Shown here in pieces: positions 5,474 to 57,205 of a stretch of DNA of 64,000 nucleotides (the first letter of the stretch is position 1; each line of letters opens with the position of its first letter). The notes beneath the pieces are model-generated. The model was given only the letters and a program-made list of their open reading frames with translations. It was not told the DNA's origin and did not search any database. Both the position numbers and the translations under genes were made by a program. The stretch is taken from NCBI GenBank assembly GCA_910578175.1, contig CAJTPF010000017.1, positions 573 to 64,572 on the forward strand, in the 5' to 3' direction. This DNA is from an uncultured Lachnospiraceae bacterium. Its GTDB lineage: Bacteria > Bacillota > Clostridia > Lachnospirales > Lachnospiraceae.

Positions 5474-6475
5474 ATGAAGAATATAAAAAAGGATTTGGAG
5501 CAGAAAGATATAAAAAGAGCATATCTGATTTTTGGAGAAGAACGTTTTCTGGTACGAAGCGCTAAAAATATGTTACTCCGTGGACTGGTAACCCAGGGGG
5601 ATACCATGAATTTTACCGGATATTCCGGCAGGGAGTGCAATGCATCCAAGATCATTGATCTGGCGGAAACACTACCCTTTTTTGCGGATTACCGGGTAAT
5701 TCTGATTGAGGACAGCGGGTGGTTTAAGACGGCTGCTGAGGAAATGGCGGAGTATGTCAGACAGATCCCGGAGTCTGCCTGTATCATTTTTATAGAAACC
5801 GAAGTGGATAAACGGAATAAATTATATAAACAGGTAAAGGCTAACGGCTATATCTGTGAATGTAAACGGGCATCCGGCAGGGAGCTTGCCCAGTGGGCTG
5901 CACGGTATCTTGCAAGGGCCGGAAAAAAGATTACCGAAAATGATATGAAATATCTGTTAGAGAAGCTGGGAGATGATATGGATAATATCTCCGGTGAACT
6001 GGAAAAACTGATCGCGTATACCTATGGGCGGGAAGTGGTGGAACGGTGTGATATTGATGCCGTCTGCGTCAGTGAGATCACGGGAAAAATTTTTGAGATG
6101 GTGGATGCCATCGGAGGAAGGAAACAGCAGAAGGCATTGGAACTGTATTATGATCTGATCGCTTCCAGGGAAGCGCCGATGAAGATTCTGTTTATGCTGG
6201 CCAGGCAGTTTAATATCATGCTTCAGATCAAGGAAATGAGCGAATATCATATTCCGGCTTCAGAAATGGCGGCAAAGCTTGGAATGCAGAATTTTATTGT
6301 GAATAAGACGGTATCCCAGTGCCGGAATTTTAAATATAAGACGATCCGAAGCGCATTAAAATATTGTATTCGTATGGAAGAAGCGGTGAAACAGGGAAAT
6401 ATGAGTGATAAAATGGCAGTGGAACTGATCATCATCCGATACAGCCGGGCAGAAGGACAGCAGGAACCGAAGTAA
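5474..6475 (+). CDS. holA: DNA polymerase III delta subunit
   Basis: The N-terminus (YLIFGEERFL) is typical of HolA. The conserved comEC-holA-rpsT arrangement supports the call. Confidence 0.8.
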   Translation: MKNIKKDLEQKDIKRAYLIFGEERFLVRSAKNMLLRGLVTQGDTMNFTGYSGRECNASKIIDLAETLPFFADYRVILIEDSGWFKTAAEEMAEYVRQIPESACIIFIETEVDKRNKLYKQVKANGYICECKRASGRELAQWAARYLARAGKKITENDMKYLLEKLGDDMDNISGELEKLIAYTYGREVVERCDIDAVCVSEITGKIFEMVDAIGGRKQQKALELYYDLIASREAPMKILFMLARQFNIMLQIKEMSEYHIPASEMAAKLGMQNFIVNKTVSQCRNFKYKTIRSALKYCIRMEEAVKQGNMSDKMAVELIIIRYSRAEGQQEPK

Positions 6476-50194: not shown

Positions 50195-50965
50195 TTAGGT
50201 TATATTATTTATGATTGACAAAAATATCCGGTTTAATTCTTCATAGCCGCAAGGAGTTTCCTGTTTCAGAAAAGGAAGGGAATCAGGAAGTTCCTTTAGG
50301 TTTCTGTCAATATATCTGTTTAAATCTTCGATTTGCGGGCATAGTTCAGTTTCTGGCGAATGCATTTTTAAATCCAGCAGTTTATGAATGACCGGTTGCA
50401 GTTCCGGTTCCAGTTCCGCCTCTGCCAGAGTTTGGAAAAATACCGGCGGAGGTGAATTTTTATCCAGAATCCACTTACAGGCCAGAAGGGGACGGATGAC
50501 ATAGAAATATTTTTTTAGTCGTACCATATCACCCTTCCGGCAGCTTTTGTAGTTATTGATGGCAATATTCAGATAGTGATGGAATCCGGCTTTTGGAGAA
50601 AAATACTGACTGAGCAGTGATTTTAACCGGTTCCATTCCTCTGTATACCGATAGATAATGGGAGAATCTGCCCATTCGAATAATGTGGGATTGGAGCCTT
50701 TTAACAGCCGTAGCGCTTTTTGCAGGTCCCAACCGTTGATATCCAGCGTATCATCTAACTGCCATTCGATGACATCTCTGGTTTTTTCTAATTTCAGATA
50801 AAAATCCGGACGTCGTACATAAATAAATCTTACGTCGTAATCGCTGTCCGGGGAAGCGAATCCCCAGGCACGGCTGCCGGATTCCAGGGCATAAATGATT
50901 TTTACCTGTTCCTGTTTTTCGATTTCTGAAATTTTTTTCTGAATGATCGGATCCAATAAGAACAC
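50195..50965 (-). CDS. Pol-beta-superfamily nucleotidyltransferase, RlaP-like (RNA-repair-associated NTase)
   Basis: The minimal NTase motif GSRAWGFASPDSDYDV is present. It lies immediately downstream of rtcB on the same strand. Confidence 0.6.
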   Translation of the reverse strand: MFLLDPIIQKKISEIEKQEQVKIIYALESGSRAWGFASPDSDYDVRFIYVRRPDFYLKLEKTRDVIEWQLDDTLDINGWDLQKALRLLKGSNPTLFEWADSPIIYRYTEEWNRLKSLLSQYFSPKAGFHHYLNIAINNYKSCRKGDMVRLKKYFYVIRPLLACKWILDKNSPPPVFFQTLAEAELEPELQPVIHKLLDLKMHSPETELCPQIEDLNRYIDRNLKELPDSLPFLKQETPCGYEELNRIFLSIINNIT

Positions 50966-50991
50966 CTTCTTTCTAATGATTAGTTGTAGAT

Positions 50992-52215
50992 TCAGGAGCC
51001 TGCTTTAAAATTGTAAACAGGTTTGATCATTTTGATGATATCAGCAGTAGGAGTGATATTATTTACTATGTCTTCCGCATTTTTATATGCCATCGGACAT
51101 TCATCCAAGGTGGAAGGGTGAATGGAAGTGGTATAAATGCCTTCCATTTCTTTTTCAAACTCTTCTAACGTGAATTTTTCTTTTGCTGCAGAGCGGCTGT
51201 ACAGGCGTCCGGCTCCATGAGGAGCGGAGCAGTTCCAGTCTTTATTTCCTTTGCCGATACAGATCAGACTTCCGTCCCGCATGTTAATGGGGATTAAAAG
51301 TTTTTCTCCTTTTTTAGCGGAAACAGCTCCCTTTCGGACGATATTGCTGTCATGATCGATATAGTTATGAACGGTTTCAAAGGATGGGAAGTCTGACAGT
51401 TCTTTATTCAAAAGTTCTTTTAGAATGATATCGGCAATCGTTAGCCGGTTTAAGTTTGCAAAATGCTGGCATATTTTCATGTCTGCCAGATAATCATCTC
51501 TGTATGTTCCGGTGAGATAACATAAATCCTTTGGCACATGAATATCTTTTGCTTCAAACCGGGATTTTAATTCCCTGATCGCCGTCTGTATATCGTTTTT
51601 TCTTCCTGCCGCCTTATATTCTGCTATGATACGGTCCCGTTCCTGAAAAAGAGTATCCTTCCCGCAGAGAATCTCATATGCCATATTCTGATGGTATTCC
51701 GCAACCTGTTTTCCAAGGTTCCGGCTTCCGGTATGAATCACCAGATACTGGTTTCCATCCCCGTCCCGGTCAACTTCTATAAAATGGTTGCCGCCGCCCA
51801 GGGTTCCGATGCTGCGCTGAATACGTTTGGTATCTTTTAAAGCCCGGTAGCAGGTTAAAGCCTGTAATTCAGGGAATCGTACGATTCTTCCGGGATGGAC
51901 CTGTTTTCCGGCGGGTACATAGGCGCGGATGATGGTGTCCAGCCTTTTCAGATCAATGGTTTCTTTTCCAAGCTCTACCGTCAGCATACCGCATCCGATA
52001 TCCACGCCCACAATGTTGGGAATCACCATATCCCCAAGATTGGCAGTAAATCCGATCACGCAGCCGTTTCCGGTATGAACATCCGGCATGATACGGATCT
52101 GACAGCCTTTTACAAAGGGCTGGCTGCATAACTGTTCAATTTGGGAAATGGCGCTGTTTTCGATTATATTTGTAAAAACGGTTGCGGATGCATAAGTTCC
52201 GTTGATAATATTCAT
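50992..52215 (-). CDS. rtcB: RNA 3'-phosphate/2',3'-cyclic phosphate-5'-OH ligase RtcB
   Basis: The metal/GMP-binding motifs DVHTGNGCVIG, HNYID and APHGAGR are present. RBS aaaggagga precedes the start. Confidence 0.85.
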   Translation of the reverse strand: MNIINGTYASATVFTNIIENSAISQIEQLCSQPFVKGCQIRIMPDVHTGNGCVIGFTANLGDMVIPNIVGVDIGCGMLTVELGKETIDLKRLDTIIRAYVPAGKQVHPGRIVRFPELQALTCYRALKDTKRIQRSIGTLGGGNHFIEVDRDGDGNQYLVIHTGSRNLGKQVAEYHQNMAYEILCGKDTLFQERDRIIAEYKAAGRKNDIQTAIRELKSRFEAKDIHVPKDLCYLTGTYRDDYLADMKICQHFANLNRLTIADIILKELLNKELSDFPSFETVHNYIDHDSNIVRKGAVSAKKGEKLLIPINMRDGSLICIGKGNKDWNCSAPHGAGRLYSRSAAKEKFTLEEFEKEMEGIYTTSIHPSTLDECPMAYKNAEDIVNNITPTADIIKMIKPVYNFKAGS

Positions 52216-52412
52216 GGTGTTGTCCTCCTTTATATGGTTTGAAAAAATATTTTTTGGCGGCTGTGCATCGGCAGCAAAAAACTTTTTTTTGTATTAACTT
52301 TAAAATTAATATAAGAAGTTTAAATTTGTTGCGGTTAAACATCATATCAGCCGGGAAACAGCCGCCGGACCCCGTTCCCCCGCTCCGGCGGCGTCCTCTT
52401 TGTCGATATGAG

Positions 52413-53519
52413 TCAACCGACTGCATTTCCGCCCCGCATAATCGTATTAAGCTGTGACAGCAAATCCGCATTCCCATTCACCGATATATTCCCCACATTT
52501 TCGCAGATTCTCTCCAGATATTCCAGTTCTTTTAATTTGTACAGTGTCCGGTTTTCGTCCATCAGTTTTGCAGTATTTAACAGGGAGCGGGTTGAAGCTA
52601 CCTCTTCTCTGCGGGTGATGACATTTGCCTGTGCCCGTTTTTCAGCAATCAGTACGGAATTCATGATTTCACGGATTTCTCCCGGAAGAATGATATCCCG
52701 GATTCCGGCATCCATGATGTCGATATAAAATTCTCTGGCTTTCAGTTTCAGCTTTTCGAATACCTGTTCAGAGATTTCGTCTTTATTTTCCAGTATTTCA
52801 TCAATGGTATGTCTGCCGATGTATTCACGGAGTGCAAGTTGCGCCGCTATATGCAACTGTTCCTCATAATTGTCAATTTCGGTCAAAACTTTTGTGTAAT
52901 CTGTTATTTTATAATTGCAGATGAAATTGATTCGAAGGCATACTTTATCTTTGGACAGGATTTCCTGACCGGTAATGGTAAGCTGGGTTAAGCGTGTATC
53001 CACGTAATCGGCATTTACTTTCGTTTTGTATTGCCAAAAGTAATAGATACCGGAATCCAGCAGACGAACCAGGTGTTTATTATAGTAAAGACGGGCTTTC
53101 ATATATTCGGCCACCTCAACTTTGGTATACAGGTGCGTAGGAATCCGTGTGAACATGAATTGCGGTATTTCAGCGGCTGATTCCGGTTCCGTCATATTGA
53201 TCCGTGTAAAAGTATGTTTATCATGAACAGACCAGAATGCATATGTACCGGCTGTCAGGGCTTCCGTAAATCTGCCGTTTATGAAATGGAGCGCCAGTTC
53301 CTCATCCGGCACATCGATCACCGTGGTATCTGCAGCCACGGCAGAATTTTTAAGCAGTACATCCAAAGAAGCAATTTTTGAAGCAAGAGGCTGATCCAGG
53401 GATACCAATTCTATCTTTTTTTCGCCGAAGACATGATATTTACCGGCGTTTAACAGTGTTATGAATTTTCCGTTATGAAAGAGAAGTCCTCTTTGATTTT
53501 CTGTGATTATTGTTTTCAT
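52413..53519 (-). CDS. Cytosolic SPFH/band-7 (stomatin-prohibitin-like) protein with triplicated N-terminal beta-hairpin repeats, no TM segment
   Basis: The SPFH core (IDIMDAGIRDIILPGEIREIMNSVLIAEKRAQANV) is present. A repeated G.Y.FW motif occurs three times N-terminally. RBS caggagg precedes the start. Confidence 0.6.
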   Translation of the reverse strand: MKTIITENQRGLLFHNGKFITLLNAGKYHVFGEKKIELVSLDQPLASKIASLDVLLKNSAVAADTTVIDVPDEELALHFINGRFTEALTAGTYAFWSVHDKHTFTRINMTEPESAAEIPQFMFTRIPTHLYTKVEVAEYMKARLYYNKHLVRLLDSGIYYFWQYKTKVNADYVDTRLTQLTITGQEILSKDKVCLRINFICNYKITDYTKVLTEIDNYEEQLHIAAQLALREYIGRHTIDEILENKDEISEQVFEKLKLKAREFYIDIMDAGIRDIILPGEIREIMNSVLIAEKRAQANVITRREEVASTRSLLNTAKLMDENRTLYKLKELEYLERICENVGNISVNGNADLLSQLNTIMRGGNAVG

Positions 53520-53825
53520 ATATTAAACCTCCTGTTGTTAAAAATAATATCAATCCTTGAAAGCGCCTTTTTCCATGCAGGAAATGCGGCCGATAAATTT
53601 AGTTTTACTGCGGCATAAGCGGAAGCGCTGCTTTGGCTTATGAAGGATTAAAACGGTATCCTTTTCGGGCAGGGCATTTTCTGCATTGTTACTTCAAAGC
53701 AGATATGAAATGCAGGGCATTTGATACCTGACATCGAGTAACCGGAAAATGGCTGTTCTGATTTTGATTGTGTTCCTAACACAATGGCATAAAGCCAAAA
53801 ACCAAAGCCACTTGGCCGGAAGGAA

Positions 53826-53890
53826 AATCCGGGCAGGATTCGAACCTGCGATGTAAAAAGTTTTAGCATACATTTTGGTATAACCGGATG
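53826..53890 (-). ncRNA. tRNA-like element: acceptor-like stem, U8, 4-bp D-stem and canonical T-arm (GCAGGTTCGAATCCTGC) but no anticodon stem. It could be a Y-RNA/YrlA-like tRNA mimic or a degenerate tRNA-Arg remnant.
   Basis: The minus strand reads CATCCGG-TT-ATACcaaaatGTAT-g-(17 nt unpaired)-GCAGGttcgaatCCTGC-CCGGATT. It lies between the WYL gene terminator and the SPFH-rtcB operon. Confidence 0.4.
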
Positions 53891-53972
53891 AACTATGGTG
53901 AAATCCGTTAGGATTGATTCACCAACTGTTTTACAAGGGATATTGTAATGGAAAATCATGGAAGAATCACGG

Positions 53973-54024
53973 AAAAAAAGTTGCGAACTCTTATTTCGGT
54001 CCGCAACTTTTTTGTTGGATAAGC
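53973..54024. terminator. Bidirectional intrinsic terminator after the WYL-pair operon (minus strand)
   Basis: The stem agttgcg...cgcaact has an A-tract and a T-tract on either side. Confidence 0.6.
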
Positions 54025-54917
54025 CGTTCTTTTATTAAATCAATAAATGAACACGGCTCTGTGACTTTGATAAGTGGCCCGAAGGACAGAACCCGGATCA
54101 CCAGTTCGGTTTCATCCTCCCGGTTATAACGGATTTTAATCTGATACCGGTCGTCGGACAGGCGTCCCGCTTCTTTTTCAAAGTGGGCAAAATGCATCAT
54201 AACACGTTCCAGGGCATTCCGCCGGTCCTCCAGCTCCAGTATAAAATAACTGGAATTGGTTTTGGAGATATGATTTCTTATATCTGTATCTTCTGATAGT
54301 ATCCCGCAGGTTTCTATACGGCTTACATTGATGATATCCGTAAACCGGCAGCCGTCTACCAGCAGCCGGAATTTATCATCTTTTTCCGAGTATTCCAGCC
54401 GGACGGGGGAGCAGAAAAAGTTCCGGCGTATGCCTTTCTTACCCAAATAACAGACTTTTATTTTTTTTCGTGTCCGAAGGGCGGTTAAAATGGTATGGAA
54501 TATACGGATATAATGTTCCTCGGTGTAAGGGTCTCCGTCTCCGTATTGATCAAAGTTTACATAATCCGACGGGGTAAACAGCGGAGGTATATCTGTTTTG
54601 ATTATTTTCTGCAGAAATTCATATTCCTGCCGGAACAGACGGACGCGCGGATCCAGTGCGACAGCTTTCAGCCAGCGTAGTTCCAGTGTGGAAAGGGGAA
54701 GCGTGGGAGGGTGTTTTAACGGAGTATGCAGGGAAGAATCCAGTAACTGCCAGCGCTCCTGTTCCAGAGCCGGCAAAATAGTGAGAAAGCTTTCCGAGAA
54801 TGTATTCCGGGTGACGAGTTCTTTCATTCTGGCTTCCGTTAAAGTTCCGCTGACAGCGGAATCCAGTATTCTGGCTACCGCATTGTAATAGCAGCCGTAT
54901 ATTTCATGAAACAGCAT
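53991..54917 (-). CDS. WYL-domain regulator (WYL + C-terminal WCX), PafC-like partner
   Basis: It has a WYL-like core (IKVCYLGKKGIRRNFFCSPVRLEY...FRLLVDGCRFTDIINVSRI) and a WCX-like tail (LVIRVLSFGPLIKVTEP). It is translationally coupled to the upstream WYL gene. Confidence 0.55.
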   Translation of the reverse strand: MLFHEIYGCYYNAVARILDSAVSGTLTEARMKELVTRNTFSESFLTILPALEQERWQLLDSSLHTPLKHPPTLPLSTLELRWLKAVALDPRVRLFRQEYEFLQKIIKTDIPPLFTPSDYVNFDQYGDGDPYTEEHYIRIFHTILTALRTRKKIKVCYLGKKGIRRNFFCSPVRLEYSEKDDKFRLLVDGCRFTDIINVSRIETCGILSEDTDIRNHISKTNSSYFILELEDRRNALERVMMHFAHFEKEAGRLSDDRYQIKIRYNREDETELVIRVLSFGPLIKVTEPCSFIDLIKERLIQQKSCGPK

Positions 54918-56191
54918 TAGCAGTCACCTCCGATCTCATAGAGCTGATACATAGCTTCCAAATCCTGCCGGAACTGGTTTTCGATCGTACGGTTGGAAAA
55001 ATCCATAGAAGTAATGCGGCAGATAAAGGTTCGGATCCAGGGAATCATTTCATTGGTATCGAAGACATCTGCCGTAAAACGGTATGTATGTTCATCGGAA
55101 CGTTCCACGGCGCCGCAGCGTTTTTCACGTTCCAGACGCTGATATATGTATTCTTCACCGGTCTCTATACGAAGGGTAAATTCAACGTGTTCCAGACGAA
55201 ACTCTTTTATTTTTTCGTATCCGTTAGAAATTTCAAGGGAGACGTTACAGGAAATTCCCCACATATGGGATTGGATCTGCTGAAGTATTTCCCTTAGCCG
55301 GTCAAATTCATGAAAGGGTTCCAAAGGTTTTATACCGGTGATATAATCCAGCCGGTAGGATTTCATACAGTGAAGTTCCGGGTTATAAGACATAAGATAG
55401 CAGCGTCCGCTTTGGACACTGATAAATATTTTAAGAGGAATCACCCTCCATTCCCGGTGACGGCCGGTGCGACGGGAATAATTGATGATGGACACACATC
55501 GTTTTTCACTGATTGCCTCAAATAACCGGCAGAGAATTTCACTTTCCAAAGCATGGGTGATGTAGTGATGTTTAAACGTAAAATATTTCGTGTGATTTTC
55601 TGTTTTATCCAGCAGGAAACTTCCGATTACACCACAGGGAGCCGTTTCGGAGAAAAATTCCAGCATATCGGTGAAAGGTGGGAGTTTTGCCGGTCCGGTC
55701 CGGCTATATAGTATCTGACGGCCCTGTCTGCTGGCGGTCAGCAGACCCAGTTCCATATATTCCTTTAATTTTTTACGGACTGTAGATTTATCAAACAGGA
55801 TCGGACTGGTAAAGCCGCAGAGATATTCGTTGTCGATTTTATCAATGATTTCATCAATGGAAAGCCGCTGCTCCTCCATATGAAGAATGTCAAACAGAAT
55901 GAAGTGCAGCGTAATGTCTCCGTCCGTAAAACTTTTGGCTTTTAAGGCTTTGTAAAGCGGATTGTGAAAAGAATTTCTACTGTCAATGGATAGGAATATA
56001 TTTTTTCCGGCAGCAGTCTGATGAAATCCCATATAGTCTCCCAGATAGCTTTCAATCCTTCTCCGTTCATTATCATAGGAGCGGGCGCTTTTTTTATTAT
56101 ATTCCTCCCGGCTTTTAAAACCATACAGATAAAATTCCCGCATATAGTCCCGGATACGTTCAAAATTTTTGATCAGTTCATGGTAAGCCAT
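54917..56191 (-). CDS. HTH-WYL-WCX transcriptional regulator (PafB/BrxR/CapW-like)
   Basis: It has a WYL domain (REWRVIPLKIFISVQSGRCYLMSYNPELHCMKSYRLDYITGIKPLE), an N-terminal wHTH-like region and a C-terminal WCX-like segment. Confidence 0.65.
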   Translation of the reverse strand: MAYHELIKNFERIRDYMREFYLYGFKSREEYNKKSARSYDNERRRIESYLGDYMGFHQTAAGKNIFLSIDSRNSFHNPLYKALKAKSFTDGDITLHFILFDILHMEEQRLSIDEIIDKIDNEYLCGFTSPILFDKSTVRKKLKEYMELGLLTASRQGRQILYSRTGPAKLPPFTDMLEFFSETAPCGVIGSFLLDKTENHTKYFTFKHHYITHALESEILCRLFEAISEKRCVSIINYSRRTGRHREWRVIPLKIFISVQSGRCYLMSYNPELHCMKSYRLDYITGIKPLEPFHEFDRLREILQQIQSHMWGISCNVSLEISNGYEKIKEFRLEHVEFTLRIETGEEYIYQRLEREKRCGAVERSDEHTYRFTADVFDTNEMIPWIRTFICRITSMDFSNRTIENQFRQDLEAMYQLYEIGGDC

Positions 56192-56272
56192 TGGTATCTC
56201 CTTCCGGTATTATAACAGGCGATTGAAAAAATTCTTTCGAAACGGGGGAATCTTTTCAATCGCCTGAGTTTG

Positions 56273-57205
56273 TCAGGTTTCGAATACGGCCTGATAGATC
56301 TGTTCGATCAGATCTTCTAAATATGCTTCGTCCAGATTGCCGTATCTGGCGGTAATCTGTTTTCTCAGATAGTCGGTGCGGTTAAAATACAGGGTTCCTT
56401 CGTTTTCGGTGGTTTCGTAGTTGGAATCCAGCTCTGCTGCCGTTTTTTCGGTAAATTCAGACAGGATATCTGCGGTCAGCTGTTCTTCCTCACCGATTTC
56501 GTTTTTTATGGTATTGGATTTTTTGTAGGCCAGGAATCCGCCGATGAGAAACACATTAAAAAGGGCTCCCATAACGATCAGAAATAAAATATTAGTGATT
56601 CCGTTGTAATCAGGACCGAAAGGAATCAAGCCCAAAGACTTTCCGATCAGATAAATATCTCCCAGCAGTCCTGTCAGAATCAGGGTCAGGGCAGAACCGC
56701 GCAGGTCTTTGTATTTATCCGCTTTTTTTACATAATTGGCAGGAGCCTCTTCCAACGGGGCAGAAGCAGGCTGTTCCGGATCCGGCGCATTTGCGGCTTC
56801 TTCTTTTAATTCATTGTCAAAAAAGATATTTAACAGACGTTTTACGTTTTGTTCATGGGGAGCGTCGGTATAGATACAGAAGCTTTCCTTTTCATCATCA
56901 TAGTGCTGTTCCACCGCGTTTATTCCGGAATATTTCAGGTATTCGGTTAGTTTTGATATGTATTCCTCATCTTTATCAAAATACATGGGAATCTTTAATT
57001 CAAAGTCTGGAAGTTTATCGATTAACGGACTGTTACAGTCCGTACAGAGTGTTATGCCGTCTTCGTATTCCAGTTTACATTTTGGACAAATTGCCATAAG
57101 ATGCTCCGTTCCGCCGTACGGTTCTGATATCGTCCGGCATTTTATTTTTATCGTTTTATATGCCTTTGTATAGTATGGATTTTCCTGCTTTACGGTCTGA
57201 ATCAC
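56273..57205 (-). CDS. Zinc-ribbon membrane protein (hypothetical)
   Basis: A Cys4 ribbon (CPKCK...CTDCN), two TM helices and an acidic C-terminal region are present. Confidence 0.4.
   Translation of the reverse strand: MIQTVKQENPYYTKAYKTIKIKCRTISEPYGGTEHLMAICPKCKLEYEDGITLCTDCNSPLIDKLPDFELKIPMYFDKDEEYISKLTEYLKYSGINAVEQHYDDEKESFCIYTDAPHEQNVKRLLNIFFDNELKEEAANAPDPEQPASAPLEEAPANYVKKADKYKDLRGSALTLILTGLLGDIYLIGKSLGLIPFGPDYNGITNILFLIVMGALFNVFLIGGFLAYKKSNTIKNEIGEEEQLTADILSEFTEKTAAELDSNYETTENEGTLYFNRTDYLRKQITARYGNLDEAYLEDLIEQIYQAVFET

Follow-up and report, generated by a model that had tools for sequence, protein, structure and literature searches.

A gut-Clostridia version of a predicted Band-7-centred RNA-repair gene set with two WYL regulators and a conserved structured RNA

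The closest described systems are those of Burroughs & Aravind (2016), who, as quoted in bioRxiv 10.1101/312249, reported the association of a Band-7 protein with RtcB and a tRNA-like RNA (b7a-tRNA), and a Ro/Y-RNA-like cofactor system has been proposed for this trio (10.1101/312249). The same 2016 paper (Nucleic Acids Res), as quoted in PMC12776372, identified RlaP as an accessory nucleotidyltransferase. RlaP extends the 3' ends of damaged RNA by one or two NMPs, and tRNA function needs it to recover from excess damage (PMC12776372). The rtc locus of P. aeruginosa includes an SPFH gene (PMC13086221). WYL transcription factors have been predicted to sense RNA fragments, and the regulation of RNA-repair pathways is mentioned in that context (PMC9503650). 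An earlier note on the DNA studied here regarded a cytosolic SPFH protein as an unusual and uncharacterised partner of RtcB, and the whole combination as not previously described. Both views are overstated, since the association, with RlaP and b7a-tRNA, was predicted in 2016, the P. aeruginosa locus has its SPFH gene, and papers after 2016 mention WYL regulators of RNA repair.

Within the window, a stretch of 64,000 nucleotides from an uncultured Lachnospiraceae bacterium, we find a gut-Clostridia version of this previously predicted Band-7-centred RNA-repair gene set, equipped with two WYL regulators. As in the 2016 systems, so far as they are quoted, a soluble Band-7 protein is encoded beside RtcB, a tRNA-like RNA lies beside Band-7, and RlaP is an accessory. 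Unlike them, the locus has a tandem WYL pair, a sigma-70-type promoter and an invariant putative operator in place of RtcR and sigma-54, although the 2016 supplement may already contain some of this. The RtcR-RtcBA operon of E. coli and Salmonella also places RtcB under an adjacent dedicated transcription factor that senses nucleic acid (PMC7790460), as the WYL pair may do here. However, the present operon has no RtcR, CARF domain, sigma-54 promoter or RtcA, and it includes Band-7 and a structured RNA.

All five genes of the locus are on the minus strand, at the coordinates given in the earlier note, and domain searches confirmed the three downstream genes that had been proposed from the sequence. 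The Band-7/SPFH ('slipin') gene (368 aa, 52413..53519) matches Pfam Band_7 PF01145 with E=5e-29 and is preceded by a Shine-Dalgarno sequence, AGGAGG, at 53528-53533. The RtcB RNA ligase gene (407 aa, 50992..52215) matches PF01139 with E=1.2e-60, and an alignment with RtcB of P. horikoshii covers its catalytic motifs MPDVHTG, DIGCG, GGGNHF, HTGSRNLG and PHGAGR. The RlaP nucleotidyltransferase gene (50195..50965; Pfam RlaP, E=1.4e-86) encodes 256 aa when read from a GTG, compared to 253 aa in public gene calls, and its translation contains GSRAWG and DSDYD motifs. Band-7 and RtcB are separated by a spacer with a GC-rich hairpin (52216..52412, minus strand) whose fold is not significant (z=-1.46). 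At 197 nt, this spacer is similar to that of locus L002 (202 nt) and shorter than that of L001 (652 nt), while most loci have 1-90 nt; the long spacer is probably a lineage-specific insertion.

The Band-7 protein has no transmembrane segment (maximum KD19 of 1.1), as the earlier note had it, and belongs with at least 7,069 relatives. It consists of three N-terminal beta-meander repeats (internal repeats, z = 5-6), an SPFH domain and a helix of roughly 60 residues. The AF2 model is elongated, with a pLDDT of 77. Foldseek aligned it to stomatin, HflK/C and prohibitin over 220-270 columns and to the major vault protein (MVP) over 405-429 columns, MVP being the sole source of full-length alignments. 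The model thus resembles a miniature MVP, at TM-scores of about 0.4. The predicted order of beta-repeats, SPFH-like shoulder and long cap helix is that of the eukaryotic vault; both proteins are soluble and go with a small RNA, in the vault the vault RNA. The differences are substantial, with three repeats as opposed to nine and 368 aa as opposed to about 860. Published bacterial MVP homologues are larger, different proteins (10.1101/872010). The absence of a transmembrane segment and the structural matches to cage-forming SPFH proteins and MVP suggest that Band-7 may be a soluble oligomeric scaffold.

Chance does not account for this gene arrangement, which recurs across 80 loci fetched from at least 567 relatives. 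Both WYL genes lie directly upstream on the same strand in 51 of the 55 loci with enough upstream sequence, and RtcB directly follows Band-7 in 56 of 66, so that the synteny of the WYL pair with the rtcB operon is borne out. At least 24 metagenomic contigs show the same gene order in their public annotation. The proposed SPFH-RtcB-RlaP operon stands in its first part, but RlaP, found in 5 of 61 related loci, is not core in this clade.

The WYL pair consists of a longer protein (424 aa, 54917..56191) and a shorter one (308 aa, 53991..54917), both encoded on the minus strand and identified from their ORFs, with domain profiles and synteny supporting the former. The two genes are translationally coupled, as claimed before, with a 1-nt overlap of the WYL-long stop and the WYL-short start at 54917. 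Such an overlap is conserved: of 56 related loci, 37 have one of 4 nt and seven one of 1 nt. The presence of WYL domains in 53991-56191 was also upheld. WYL-long, which has an N-terminal region, a probable wHTH at about residues 100-187, a WYL domain at 219-288 and a C-terminal extension, scored 28.1 bits against Pfam WYL (cut-off 21.8) and 1.7e-14 against PADLOC WYL, and its family profile weakly matched the WYL domains of PafB/PafC and the ArsR/SmtB wHTH. WYL-short itself had no match in the Pfam profile search. It was instead recognized by PADLOC WYL (1.5e-9), through homologues at 54-57% identity that exceed the Pfam WYL and WCX cut-offs, and through its AF2 model (pLDDT 80), which Foldseek matched over its full length to DriD, PafBC, CapW and BrxR (E = 7e-9 to 1e-4). 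Its family has 6,079 members. Assignment of both proteins to the DriD/PafBC/CapW/BrxR class, with HTH-WYL-WCX architecture, is thus supported. To judge by the titles of the matched entries, DriD, PafBC and CapW bind single-stranded DNA.

PafBC of Actinobacteria is similar in comprising two different, tandem-encoded HTH-WYL-WCX proteins, in fold and in having its operator at the -35 position. Its DNA motif and regulon differ, however, and sequence comparison found no significant relationship to the present pair (E = 0.07-0.34), for which a heterodimer and a ligand are predicted. Nor did sequence comparison detect similarity or paralogy between WYL-long and WYL-short. DriD, CapW and BrxR, products of single genes and among the best structural matches, share the three-domain architecture and are encoded beside the stress or defence operon that each controls, as may be the case at the present locus, but they act as homodimers on palindromes, whereas here there are two dissimilar proteins and an asymmetric motif.

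This motif, the 21-nt TTCGCAACTTTTTTTCCGTGA (53967..53987, minus strand), lies over the -35 region between the WYL genes and the operon and is a candidate operator of the WYL pair. It is an imperfect inverted repeat (TTCgCaG-N9-CcGtGAA), present once in the window against 0.02 copies expected, and carries about 2 bits per position in 64 distinct sequences while its flanks are unconserved. Read from the sequence, the -10 box TACAAT is at 53942..53947 on the minus strand, placing the probable transcription start at about 53938-53933. Most relatives have an extended -10, TGGTAAAAT, the -10 position is conserved in 65 loci, and the distance between it and the motif is fixed at 19 nt in 47 of 64. 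In locus L043, an insertion lies between the WYL genes and the RNA, and the motif has remained beside the RNA. The bidirectional terminator placed here by the earlier note is a real hairpin (53974..54013, minus strand; -18.5 kcal/mol, z=-5.0) with A6 and U7 flanks. The final codons of WYL-short contain its 5' arm, and its 3' arm belongs to the motif; about 17 related loci lack the 5' arm, and there the motif in the 3' arm is invariant.

Does the pair activate or repress? Repressors of the CapW/BrxR type would keep the operon off until released by a ligand, and we consider this possible but rather less than probable. The motif overlaps the -35 region, the extended -10 of most relatives could function without an activator, CapW and BrxR, which are repressors, are among the matches of the WYL-short model, and WYL proteins have been described as repressors of defence systems (PMC11888443). 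On the other hand, DriD and PafBC, which match WYL-short best in structure, are activators. The weakness of the -35-like hexamer GTGAAA is what an activator-dependent promoter would be expected to show, and the analogous RtcR is an activator.

The gap of ~470 bp upstream of Band-7 indeed contains no credible ORF, but it is not spacer DNA, as the earlier note took it to be: besides the conserved promoter and putative operator, it carries a structured RNA of roughly 365-420 nt (about 53938-53575; overall fold z=-5.2). No other part of the locus is as conserved or as little characterised as this RNA. Its 5' and 3' domains are supported by covariation, and it is uncatalogued: ARAGORN called no tRNA in the region, and Rfam did not recognize it. 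The 5' domain (53801..53938, minus strand) comprises a closing helix H1, a hairpin P2, a composite helix P3, a T-arm, a post-T hairpin and a small CCNR...YNGG hairpin. CM R1 scored 48.5 bits on it (E about 1e-14); of the 80 loci, it matched 78 once each, on the strand of the operon. Counted on a model-fitted alignment, 94.5% of cells are paired (97.8% in H1), compared to 31-50% when slid, and 32 of 35 pairs show double changes. The tRNA-type T-arm, GCAGG-UUCGAAU-CCUGC (53833..53849, minus strand), is an exact tRNA T-arm; almost every locus has GGTTCGAATCC on the strand of the operon, and its stem covaries (C-G/U-A and G-C/A-U). Many relatives also have an anticodon-like hairpin, mostly with GUN triplets, the anticodon set of queuosine tRNAs; the window RNA lacks it. 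In the middle region (53687..53800, minus strand), alignments show hairpins that differ by lineage, and the minimum free energy fold of the window also has hairpins there. The 3' domain (53575..53686, minus strand) has five nested helices (31 bp) around the invariant blocks GGAUACCG, ACUNAA and GCCGC, with compensatory changes in 28 of 31 pairs by RNAalifold. It is 90.7% paired compared to 36-47% when slid, with covariation of 0.60 compared to 0.08-0.15, a value reached in 0/500 shuffles; related sequences inflate such shuffle statistics. CM R2, built for this domain, scored 103.9 bits in the window and also matched non-seed loci, but found no match in the Citrobacter locus. The length, the covarying 3' domain and the missing anticodon arm of the window RNA set it apart from the 2016 systems as quoted.

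Because no intrinsic terminator was found between the RNA and the first ORF, an alternative is a cis-acting 5' leader: a riboswitch-like or tRNA-sensing element that would control the expression of Band-7 and RtcB and would be no trans partner of Band-7. The RNA is always directly upstream of that ORF, even where another ORF, of 219 aa, has been inserted, the end of its 3' domain is 40-55 nt ahead of the Shine-Dalgarno sequence, and T-loop motifs dock tRNA elbows in T-box leaders and RNase P. We nevertheless regard a leader as unlikely. Neither a terminator/antiterminator nor a clear helix sequestering the SD is conserved, and the locus already encodes a dedicated transcriptional regulator made up of two proteins. 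In Citrobacter, moreover, where promoter and regulator are quite different, Band-7 again comes with a T-arm RNA, which thus tracks the protein and not the mechanism of expression.

The reading we favour, with some confidence, casts the WYL pair as the sensor of damaged nucleic acid and as the switch for a particle of RNA and Band-7 that would assist RtcB. The two WYL proteins would act together at the asymmetric operator, probably as a heteromer, and would turn the operon on when they bind a nucleic-acid signal of damage (cleaved RNA or single strands). The RNA, released or kept as a stable 5' part, may assemble with a ring or cage of vault-like Band-7, as Y RNA does with Ro60. This particle could hold or present broken tRNA or rRNA while RtcB reseals 3'-phosphate/5'-OH ends, RlaP having acted first to restore one or two lost 3' nucleotides. 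Ro60-Y RNA (YrlA) particles encoded beside RtcB likewise combine a non-catalytic scaffold protein with a tRNA-mimicking RNA that has a T-arm (10.1101/312249), a combination that this locus may share; unlike them, the protein has an SPFH and not a TROVE fold, and the RNA is several times longer and has no Y-RNA or YrlA match in Rfam.

An anti-phage or toxin-like conflict system, with RtcB or Band-7 directed against invaders and not housekeeping-type repair, is improbable. WYL regulators are a typical feature of defence loci (PMC4012209), the cassette's neighbours vary between genomes, and the GUN triplets of the relatives' hairpins would fit such a role, but PADLOC models matched none of Band-7, RtcB and RlaP, no homologue was found among 50,697 phage records, the neighbours in the window are ordinary metabolic genes, and the catalytic residues of RtcB are of the ligase type. 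That the WYL pair is adjacent by chance or controls other genes, its motif being a mere terminator, deserves almost no credence: in the window, a good terminator hairpin does have the left half of the motif as its 3' arm, but synteny already contradicts this reading, and the motif is invariant without the hairpin's 5' arm, at a fixed distance from the -10, and stays beside the RNA in L043.

In the Citrobacter locus, the slipin (Band-7) gene, a nucleotidyltransferase gene and a T-arm RNA occur together with rtcR and a sigma-54 promoter. Since this homologous Band-7 and nucleotidyltransferase module is beside rtcR and sigma-54, WYL and RtcR-CARF hold the same regulatory position in different lineages. 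The earlier proposal that a WYL pair takes the place of RtcR-CARF therefore stands as to position, and the pair belongs to the locus; WYL control of RNA repair as such was not new. Judged from gene content, this supports the idea that regulators, a WYL pair or RtcR, may have been swapped between lineages around an RNA-Band-7-nucleotidyltransferase module.

All five minus-strand ORFs lie where the earlier note had placed them, and its observation of the locus was confirmed; its interpretation is partly supported. Pfam WYL recognizes the upstream regulator (WYL-long, 424 aa, 54917-56191) with 28.1 bits vs. a cut-off of 21.8. The second regulator (WYL-short, 308 aa, 53991-54917) has no Pfam match of its own, and its assignment comes from the PADLOC WYL model (1.5e-9), from family members of 54-57% identity that pass Pfam WYL and WCX, and from its fold match. 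Downstream, the 368 aa SPFH/slipin protein (Band-7, 52413-53519) matches Pfam Band_7 with E=5e-29 and 102 bits, its SPFH domain being followed by a long helix at residues 280-342. RtcB (50992-52215) matches PF01139 with E=1.2e-60 (206 bits vs. a cut-off of 27), and its MPDVHTG, DIGCG, GGGNHF, HTGSRNLG and PHGAGR motifs align with P. horikoshii RtcB at the metal-binding Asp/Cys/His residues and the guanylylated His; by these conserved catalytic residues it is predicted to be a 3'-phosphate/5'-OH ligase. The adjoining gene (RlaP, 50195-50965) covers the whole PF10127 profile (E=1.4e-86, 290.7 bits) and its translation carries the Pol-beta motifs GSRAWG and DSDYD; public gene callers start it three codons after the GTG previously chosen, giving 253 rather than 256 aa. 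The same gene arrangement is present in the public gene calls of at least 24 metagenomic contigs. None of the five proteins has an NCBIfam equivalog. The RtcR-RtcBA system includes the CARF/sigma-54 activator RtcR and the cyclase RtcA, whereas a domain search of the genes of the window locus found neither.

Relatives of Band-7 were collected by scanning one genome per species, which yielded at least 567, and 80 loci were fetched. Almost all are from Clostridia (Lachnospiraceae, Oscillospiraceae, Acutalibacteraceae, Anaerovoracaceae), the cultured Robinsoniella peoriensis and Hominibacterium faecale included. When counts were restricted to loci with sufficient flanking sequence, the two WYL genes were found immediately upstream of Band-7 and the non-coding gap before it, on the same strand, in 51 of 55 loci, and RtcB immediately downstream of Band-7 in 56/66. 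Synteny of the rtcB operon with the WYL genes is thus clear in related genomes. RlaP is present in only 5/61. These counts define a conserved core of WYL-long, WYL-short, the gap, Band-7 and RtcB, with RlaP an accessory of the window's lineage. The spacer between Band-7 and RtcB in the window (52216-52412, minus strand) is 197 nt long and contains a GC-rich hairpin, GCCGCCGGA...UCCGGCGGC, with a fold that is not significant (z=-1.46). It measures 1-90 nt in most relatives, 202 nt in L002 and 652 nt in L001, and looks like a lineage-specific insertion. In ten loci (L049:5315-5974, L029, L034, L045, L046, L048, L057, L063 and L074 among them) a conserved 219-aa ORF that matches no Pfam family stands between the gap and Band-7.

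The earlier note described the ~470 bp between WYL-short and Band-7 as non-coding DNA. This description is incomplete: the gap carries a conserved operator candidate and a large structured RNA, and the whole of it is conserved in blocks among the loci. Nearly all loci have GGTTCGAATCC on the operon strand upstream of Band-7, an exact T-arm comprising tRNA T-loop and stem (53833-53849 in the window, minus strand). With 763 columns, a global MAFFT alignment of the whole RNA had too many gaps, and we therefore treated the RNA as two domains. The 3' domain (window 53686-53575) forms five nested helices by RNAalifold, with compensatory double changes in 28 of 31 pairs; 90.7% of its cells are paired vs. 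36-47% when the partners are slid, and its covariation score of 0.60 (vs. 0.08-0.15) is reached by none of 500 shuffles. With a covariance model of this domain, the window scores 103.9 bits, and loci outside the seed are matched as well. For the 5' domain, a covariance model built from 17 similar sequences matches 78 of the 80 loci, each once and over its full length, and also the window, at 53801-53938 (48.5 bits, E ~1e-14). In the resulting alignment, with the caveat that it is fitted to that model, double changes occur in 32/35 pairs and 94.5% of cells are paired (31-50% slid). The 5' domain is closed by a long-range helix, 97.8% paired, in which the 5' end meets a CUUGC block; a local 5' hairpin considered in its place is weaker (75.5%). 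Folded alone, the window RNA reproduces the same helices with z=-5.2. Where the 219-aa ORF is present, the RNA precedes that ORF.

In searches of Rfam 15, the window had no match at E = 1 or better, and ten loci had none at gathering score; the Y RNA and YrlA models likewise failed to match at these levels, and the tRNA model stayed below threshold for the gap RNA of the window and the ten loci. ARAGORN found no tRNA in the window and called one in the gap of only 3/54 loci. A strong resemblance to an authentic tRNA cloverleaf is not supported by these results, nor by the window RNA, which lacks an anticodon-like arm. Of 55 distinct RNAs, about 20 do have, 4-8 nt before the T-arm, a hairpin with the canonical anticodon-loop shape (CU-NNN-AA), in which the triplets are mostly GUC (8), GUA (4), GUU (3) and GUG (1); examples are L014:975-995, L027, L041 and L064. 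The window RNA and those of its closest relatives are without it. Queuosine tRNAs (Asp, Tyr, Asn and His) have GUC, GUA, GUU and GUG as their anticodons; these contain the UGU element recognized by TGT and are targets of colicin E5-type nucleases. Other RNA variants have a second T-arm-like hairpin, GGGG-UUCAACU-CCCC.

At the upstream end of the gap, the terminator reported after the WYL genes was recovered as a good terminator-like hairpin with an A tract on one side and a U tract on the other (-18.5 kcal/mol, z=-5.0). Its 3' arm forms the left part of a motif, TTCGCA(A/G)C-TTTTTTT-CCGTGA, that is essentially invariant in 64 distinct sequences (~2 bits per position over 21 nt). The flanks of the motif are unconserved in these sequences, and the encoded proteins are only 45-60% identical. 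In the window it lies at 53967-53987 and occurs once in the 64 kb. About 17 loci without the 5' arm of the terminator, some with a separate upstream terminator, still keep the motif, and in L043, which has an insertion of ~1.2 kb separating the WYL genes from the RNA, it is found directly upstream of the RNA and away from the WYL genes. The distance from the motif to the -10 box is a fixed 19 nt in 47/64, which places GTGAAA at the -35 position. The motif is an imperfect inverted repeat, TTCgCaG-N9-CcGtGAA, and would be the natural candidate binding site for two unlike WYL proteins. In L025, L032, L054 and L063 the RNA upstream of Band-7 is kept and there is no WYL pair within ~3 kb upstream, so the regulators can be encoded elsewhere; L025 has a WYL-long homologue ~5 kb downstream, and a strict pattern scan still finds the operator motif in L032 and L063.

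The translational coupling proposed for the two WYL genes holds: they overlap by 1 nt in the window, and among relatives by 4 nt in 37/56 and 1 nt in 7/56. PafBC likewise consists of two distinct WYL proteins, in tandem or fused, and the tandem arrangement here (4-nt or 1-nt overlap in 44/56 loci) is comparable. Orthology to actinobacterial PafB/PafC is not supported (best profile E-values 0.07-0.34), and by inspection TTCGCARC-T7-CCGTGA differs from the RecA-NDp-type motif that PafBC targets. WYL-long and WYL-short have no significant similarity to each other by BLASTP or hhalign, and single-sequence PDB searches with both gave no matches. Alignments for structure prediction were built from database matches. 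The AlphaFold model of WYL-short (pLDDT 80) aligns over its full length to DriD, PafBC, CapW and BrxR in Foldseek (E = 7e-9 to 1e-4), and a possible N-terminal HTH of WYL-long has weak matches to ArsR/SmtB (E = 0.07-0.2). At 56210-56262 (minus strand), a second small hairpin is enclosed by a perfect 10-bp inverted repeat, CGATTGAAAA...TTTTCAATCG, just upstream of the TATAAT box that precedes the WYL-long start. This repeat may terminate the upstream gene or may serve in control of the WYL genes; a scan of the window did not find the operator motif of the RNA promoter repeated there. That upstream gene, a 310-aa ORF at 56273-57205 (minus strand), matches no Pfam family and has a strong hydrophobic segment near residue 206 (KD19 = 2.5). 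It and a GNAT gene are kept only in the closest relatives (L001, L002), which places the 310-aa ORF outside the cassette.

Stomatin, HflK/C and flotillin typically have an N-terminal membrane anchor, whereas Band-7 lacks any hydrophobic segment (maximum KD19 = 1.1), as the earlier note held, and has three β-repeats instead. Its AlphaFold model (pLDDT 77) comprises three N-terminal β-meander repeats, also seen in the sequence (z = 5-6), then the SPFH domain and a ~60-residue helix. In Foldseek, stomatin, HflK/C, prohibitin and erlin align to the SPFH domain and helix over 220-270 columns, with E = 1e-14 to 1e-8 for the first three. Only the major vault protein (MVP) aligns to the whole of this predicted model, over 405-429 columns (E ~1e-10 to 1e-9), with TM-scores of ~0.4 that make the likeness a resemblance, not a demonstrated relationship. 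The predicted order of parts may be that of MVP, in which β-repeats are followed by a shoulder and a cap helix, and the predicted shape of Band-7 recalls the vault shell. MVP builds a soluble RNA-containing cage. The bacterial MVP homologues described in the literature are different from Band-7 and larger (10.1101/872010). Some members of the Band-7 family (P0124, P0125, P0128, P0129, P0131) have 496-638 aa vs. the usual ~367 aa, with additional domains.

Parts of this system appear in earlier literature. The abstract of Burroughs & Aravind 2016 reportedly describes TROVE and SPFH modules paired with cognate RNAs. In P. aeruginosa the rtc locus includes an SPFH gene (PMC13086221). According to 10.1101/312249, which cites Burroughs & Aravind 2016, some bacteria encode RtcB beside a protein of the Band-7 type and a "band 7-associated tRNA", a predicted RNA whose existence had not been validated, and this protein-RNA pair was proposed as a functional analogue of Ro60 and its Y RNA, YrlA. 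According to PMC12776372, RlaP was named by Burroughs & Aravind 2016 for its association with RNA ligases, and it extends the 3' ends of damaged RNA by one or two nucleotides. CARF- and WYL-domain transcription factors may sense cyclic-ended RNAs and regulate RNA-repair pathways (PMC9503650). From these statements in citing papers, neither the combination of genes nor a WYL sensor as a general idea is new, and the claim that the system was "not described in this form" was overstated. The band 7-associated tRNA is a tRNA-featured non-coding RNA adjoining a Band-7 gene, and the window RNA, with its T-arm on the operon strand upstream of Band-7, fits that description; a strong resemblance to an authentic tRNA, also expected of it, was not found for the window RNA. 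The locus is a variant of a computationally predicted type of RNA-repair system, and its value is in the operator and the structured RNA more than in the gene list.

Band-7 also has full-length relatives in Escherichia, Citrobacter and Burkholderia, which share 33-35% identity with it across 95% of the length. In Citrobacter freundii (L081, NZ_CP151862.1) the annotation gives a divergent rtcR, then a 450-bp gap, then the gene of a slipin family protein and that of a nucleotidyltransferase. Within the gap (5544-5991), a T-arm, TGGGTTCGATTCCCA, lies downstream of a sigma-54-type promoter, TGGCACgcttcTGGCA, with a hairpin directly after it, which is the local arrangement of the clostridial RNA. 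In this locus the 3'-domain model has no match and the 5'-domain model matches the T-loop only. The operon has no rtcB, and a RelE/ParE-XRE toxin-antitoxin pair lies just beyond rtcR. The regulatory position next to the RNA-plus-Band-7 module is thus occupied by RtcR-CARF in one lineage, and in the other by two WYL proteins. This comparison is the best evidence for the earlier suggestion that a WYL pair replaces RtcR-CARF; the PafBC-like part of that suggestion did not extend to orthology.

What the analysis shows is the set of parts, how they are ordered and conserved, and the structure of the RNA; we infer the remainder of the mechanism. The WYL pair would act on the candidate operator, as activator or repressor, in response to a ligand that may be a product of nucleic-acid damage; the RNA and an oligomeric Band-7 scaffold would then assist RtcB, with RlaP dealing with missing nucleotides. 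The main rival to an RNA acting with Band-7 is a cis-acting leader, since no terminator intervenes between the RNA and Band-7. As to the direction of control, the extended -10 and the structural matches to CapW and BrxR are consistent with a WYL pair that may repress the promoter, but we lean toward an activator, given the weak -35 and given that DriD and PafBC are the best matches in structure. A defence role is less likely, as PADLOC models have no match for Band-7, RtcB or RlaP, the phage records searched hold no Band-7 homologues, and the neighbours are ordinary metabolic genes.

A rather improbable extension of the RNA-repair reading is that Band-7 is a miniature vault-type cage former that, with the ~400-nt T-arm RNA, makes a vault- or Ro-like RNP for RNA repair, induced on demand by a heteromeric WYL sensor of damaged nucleic acid and widespread in gut Clostridia; the anticodon-like loops of relatives (mostly GUN) would then be mimics or baits for anticodon nucleases or tRNA-modifying enzymes.

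RtcB is among the most widespread RNA ligases. A Band-7 partner and a tRNA-like RNA were predicted ten years ago, and we found no validation in the literature consulted. Hundreds of gut species carry an invariant operator candidate and a large, well-supported structured RNA absent from catalogues, and Robinsoniella peoriensis, Hominibacterium faecale and Subdoligranulum variabile are cultured carriers. The locus supplies parts that can be tested: a defined 21-bp operator candidate, a defined promoter, a ~400-nt RNA with two covariation-supported domains not in Rfam, and a soluble SPFH protein. The exchange of an RtcR CARF sensor for a WYL sensor pair over the same effector module is a clean natural swap that bears on the signal both families read, and the operator, the RNA and the predicted vault-like soluble SPFH protein together make the ten-year-old prediction directly testable.
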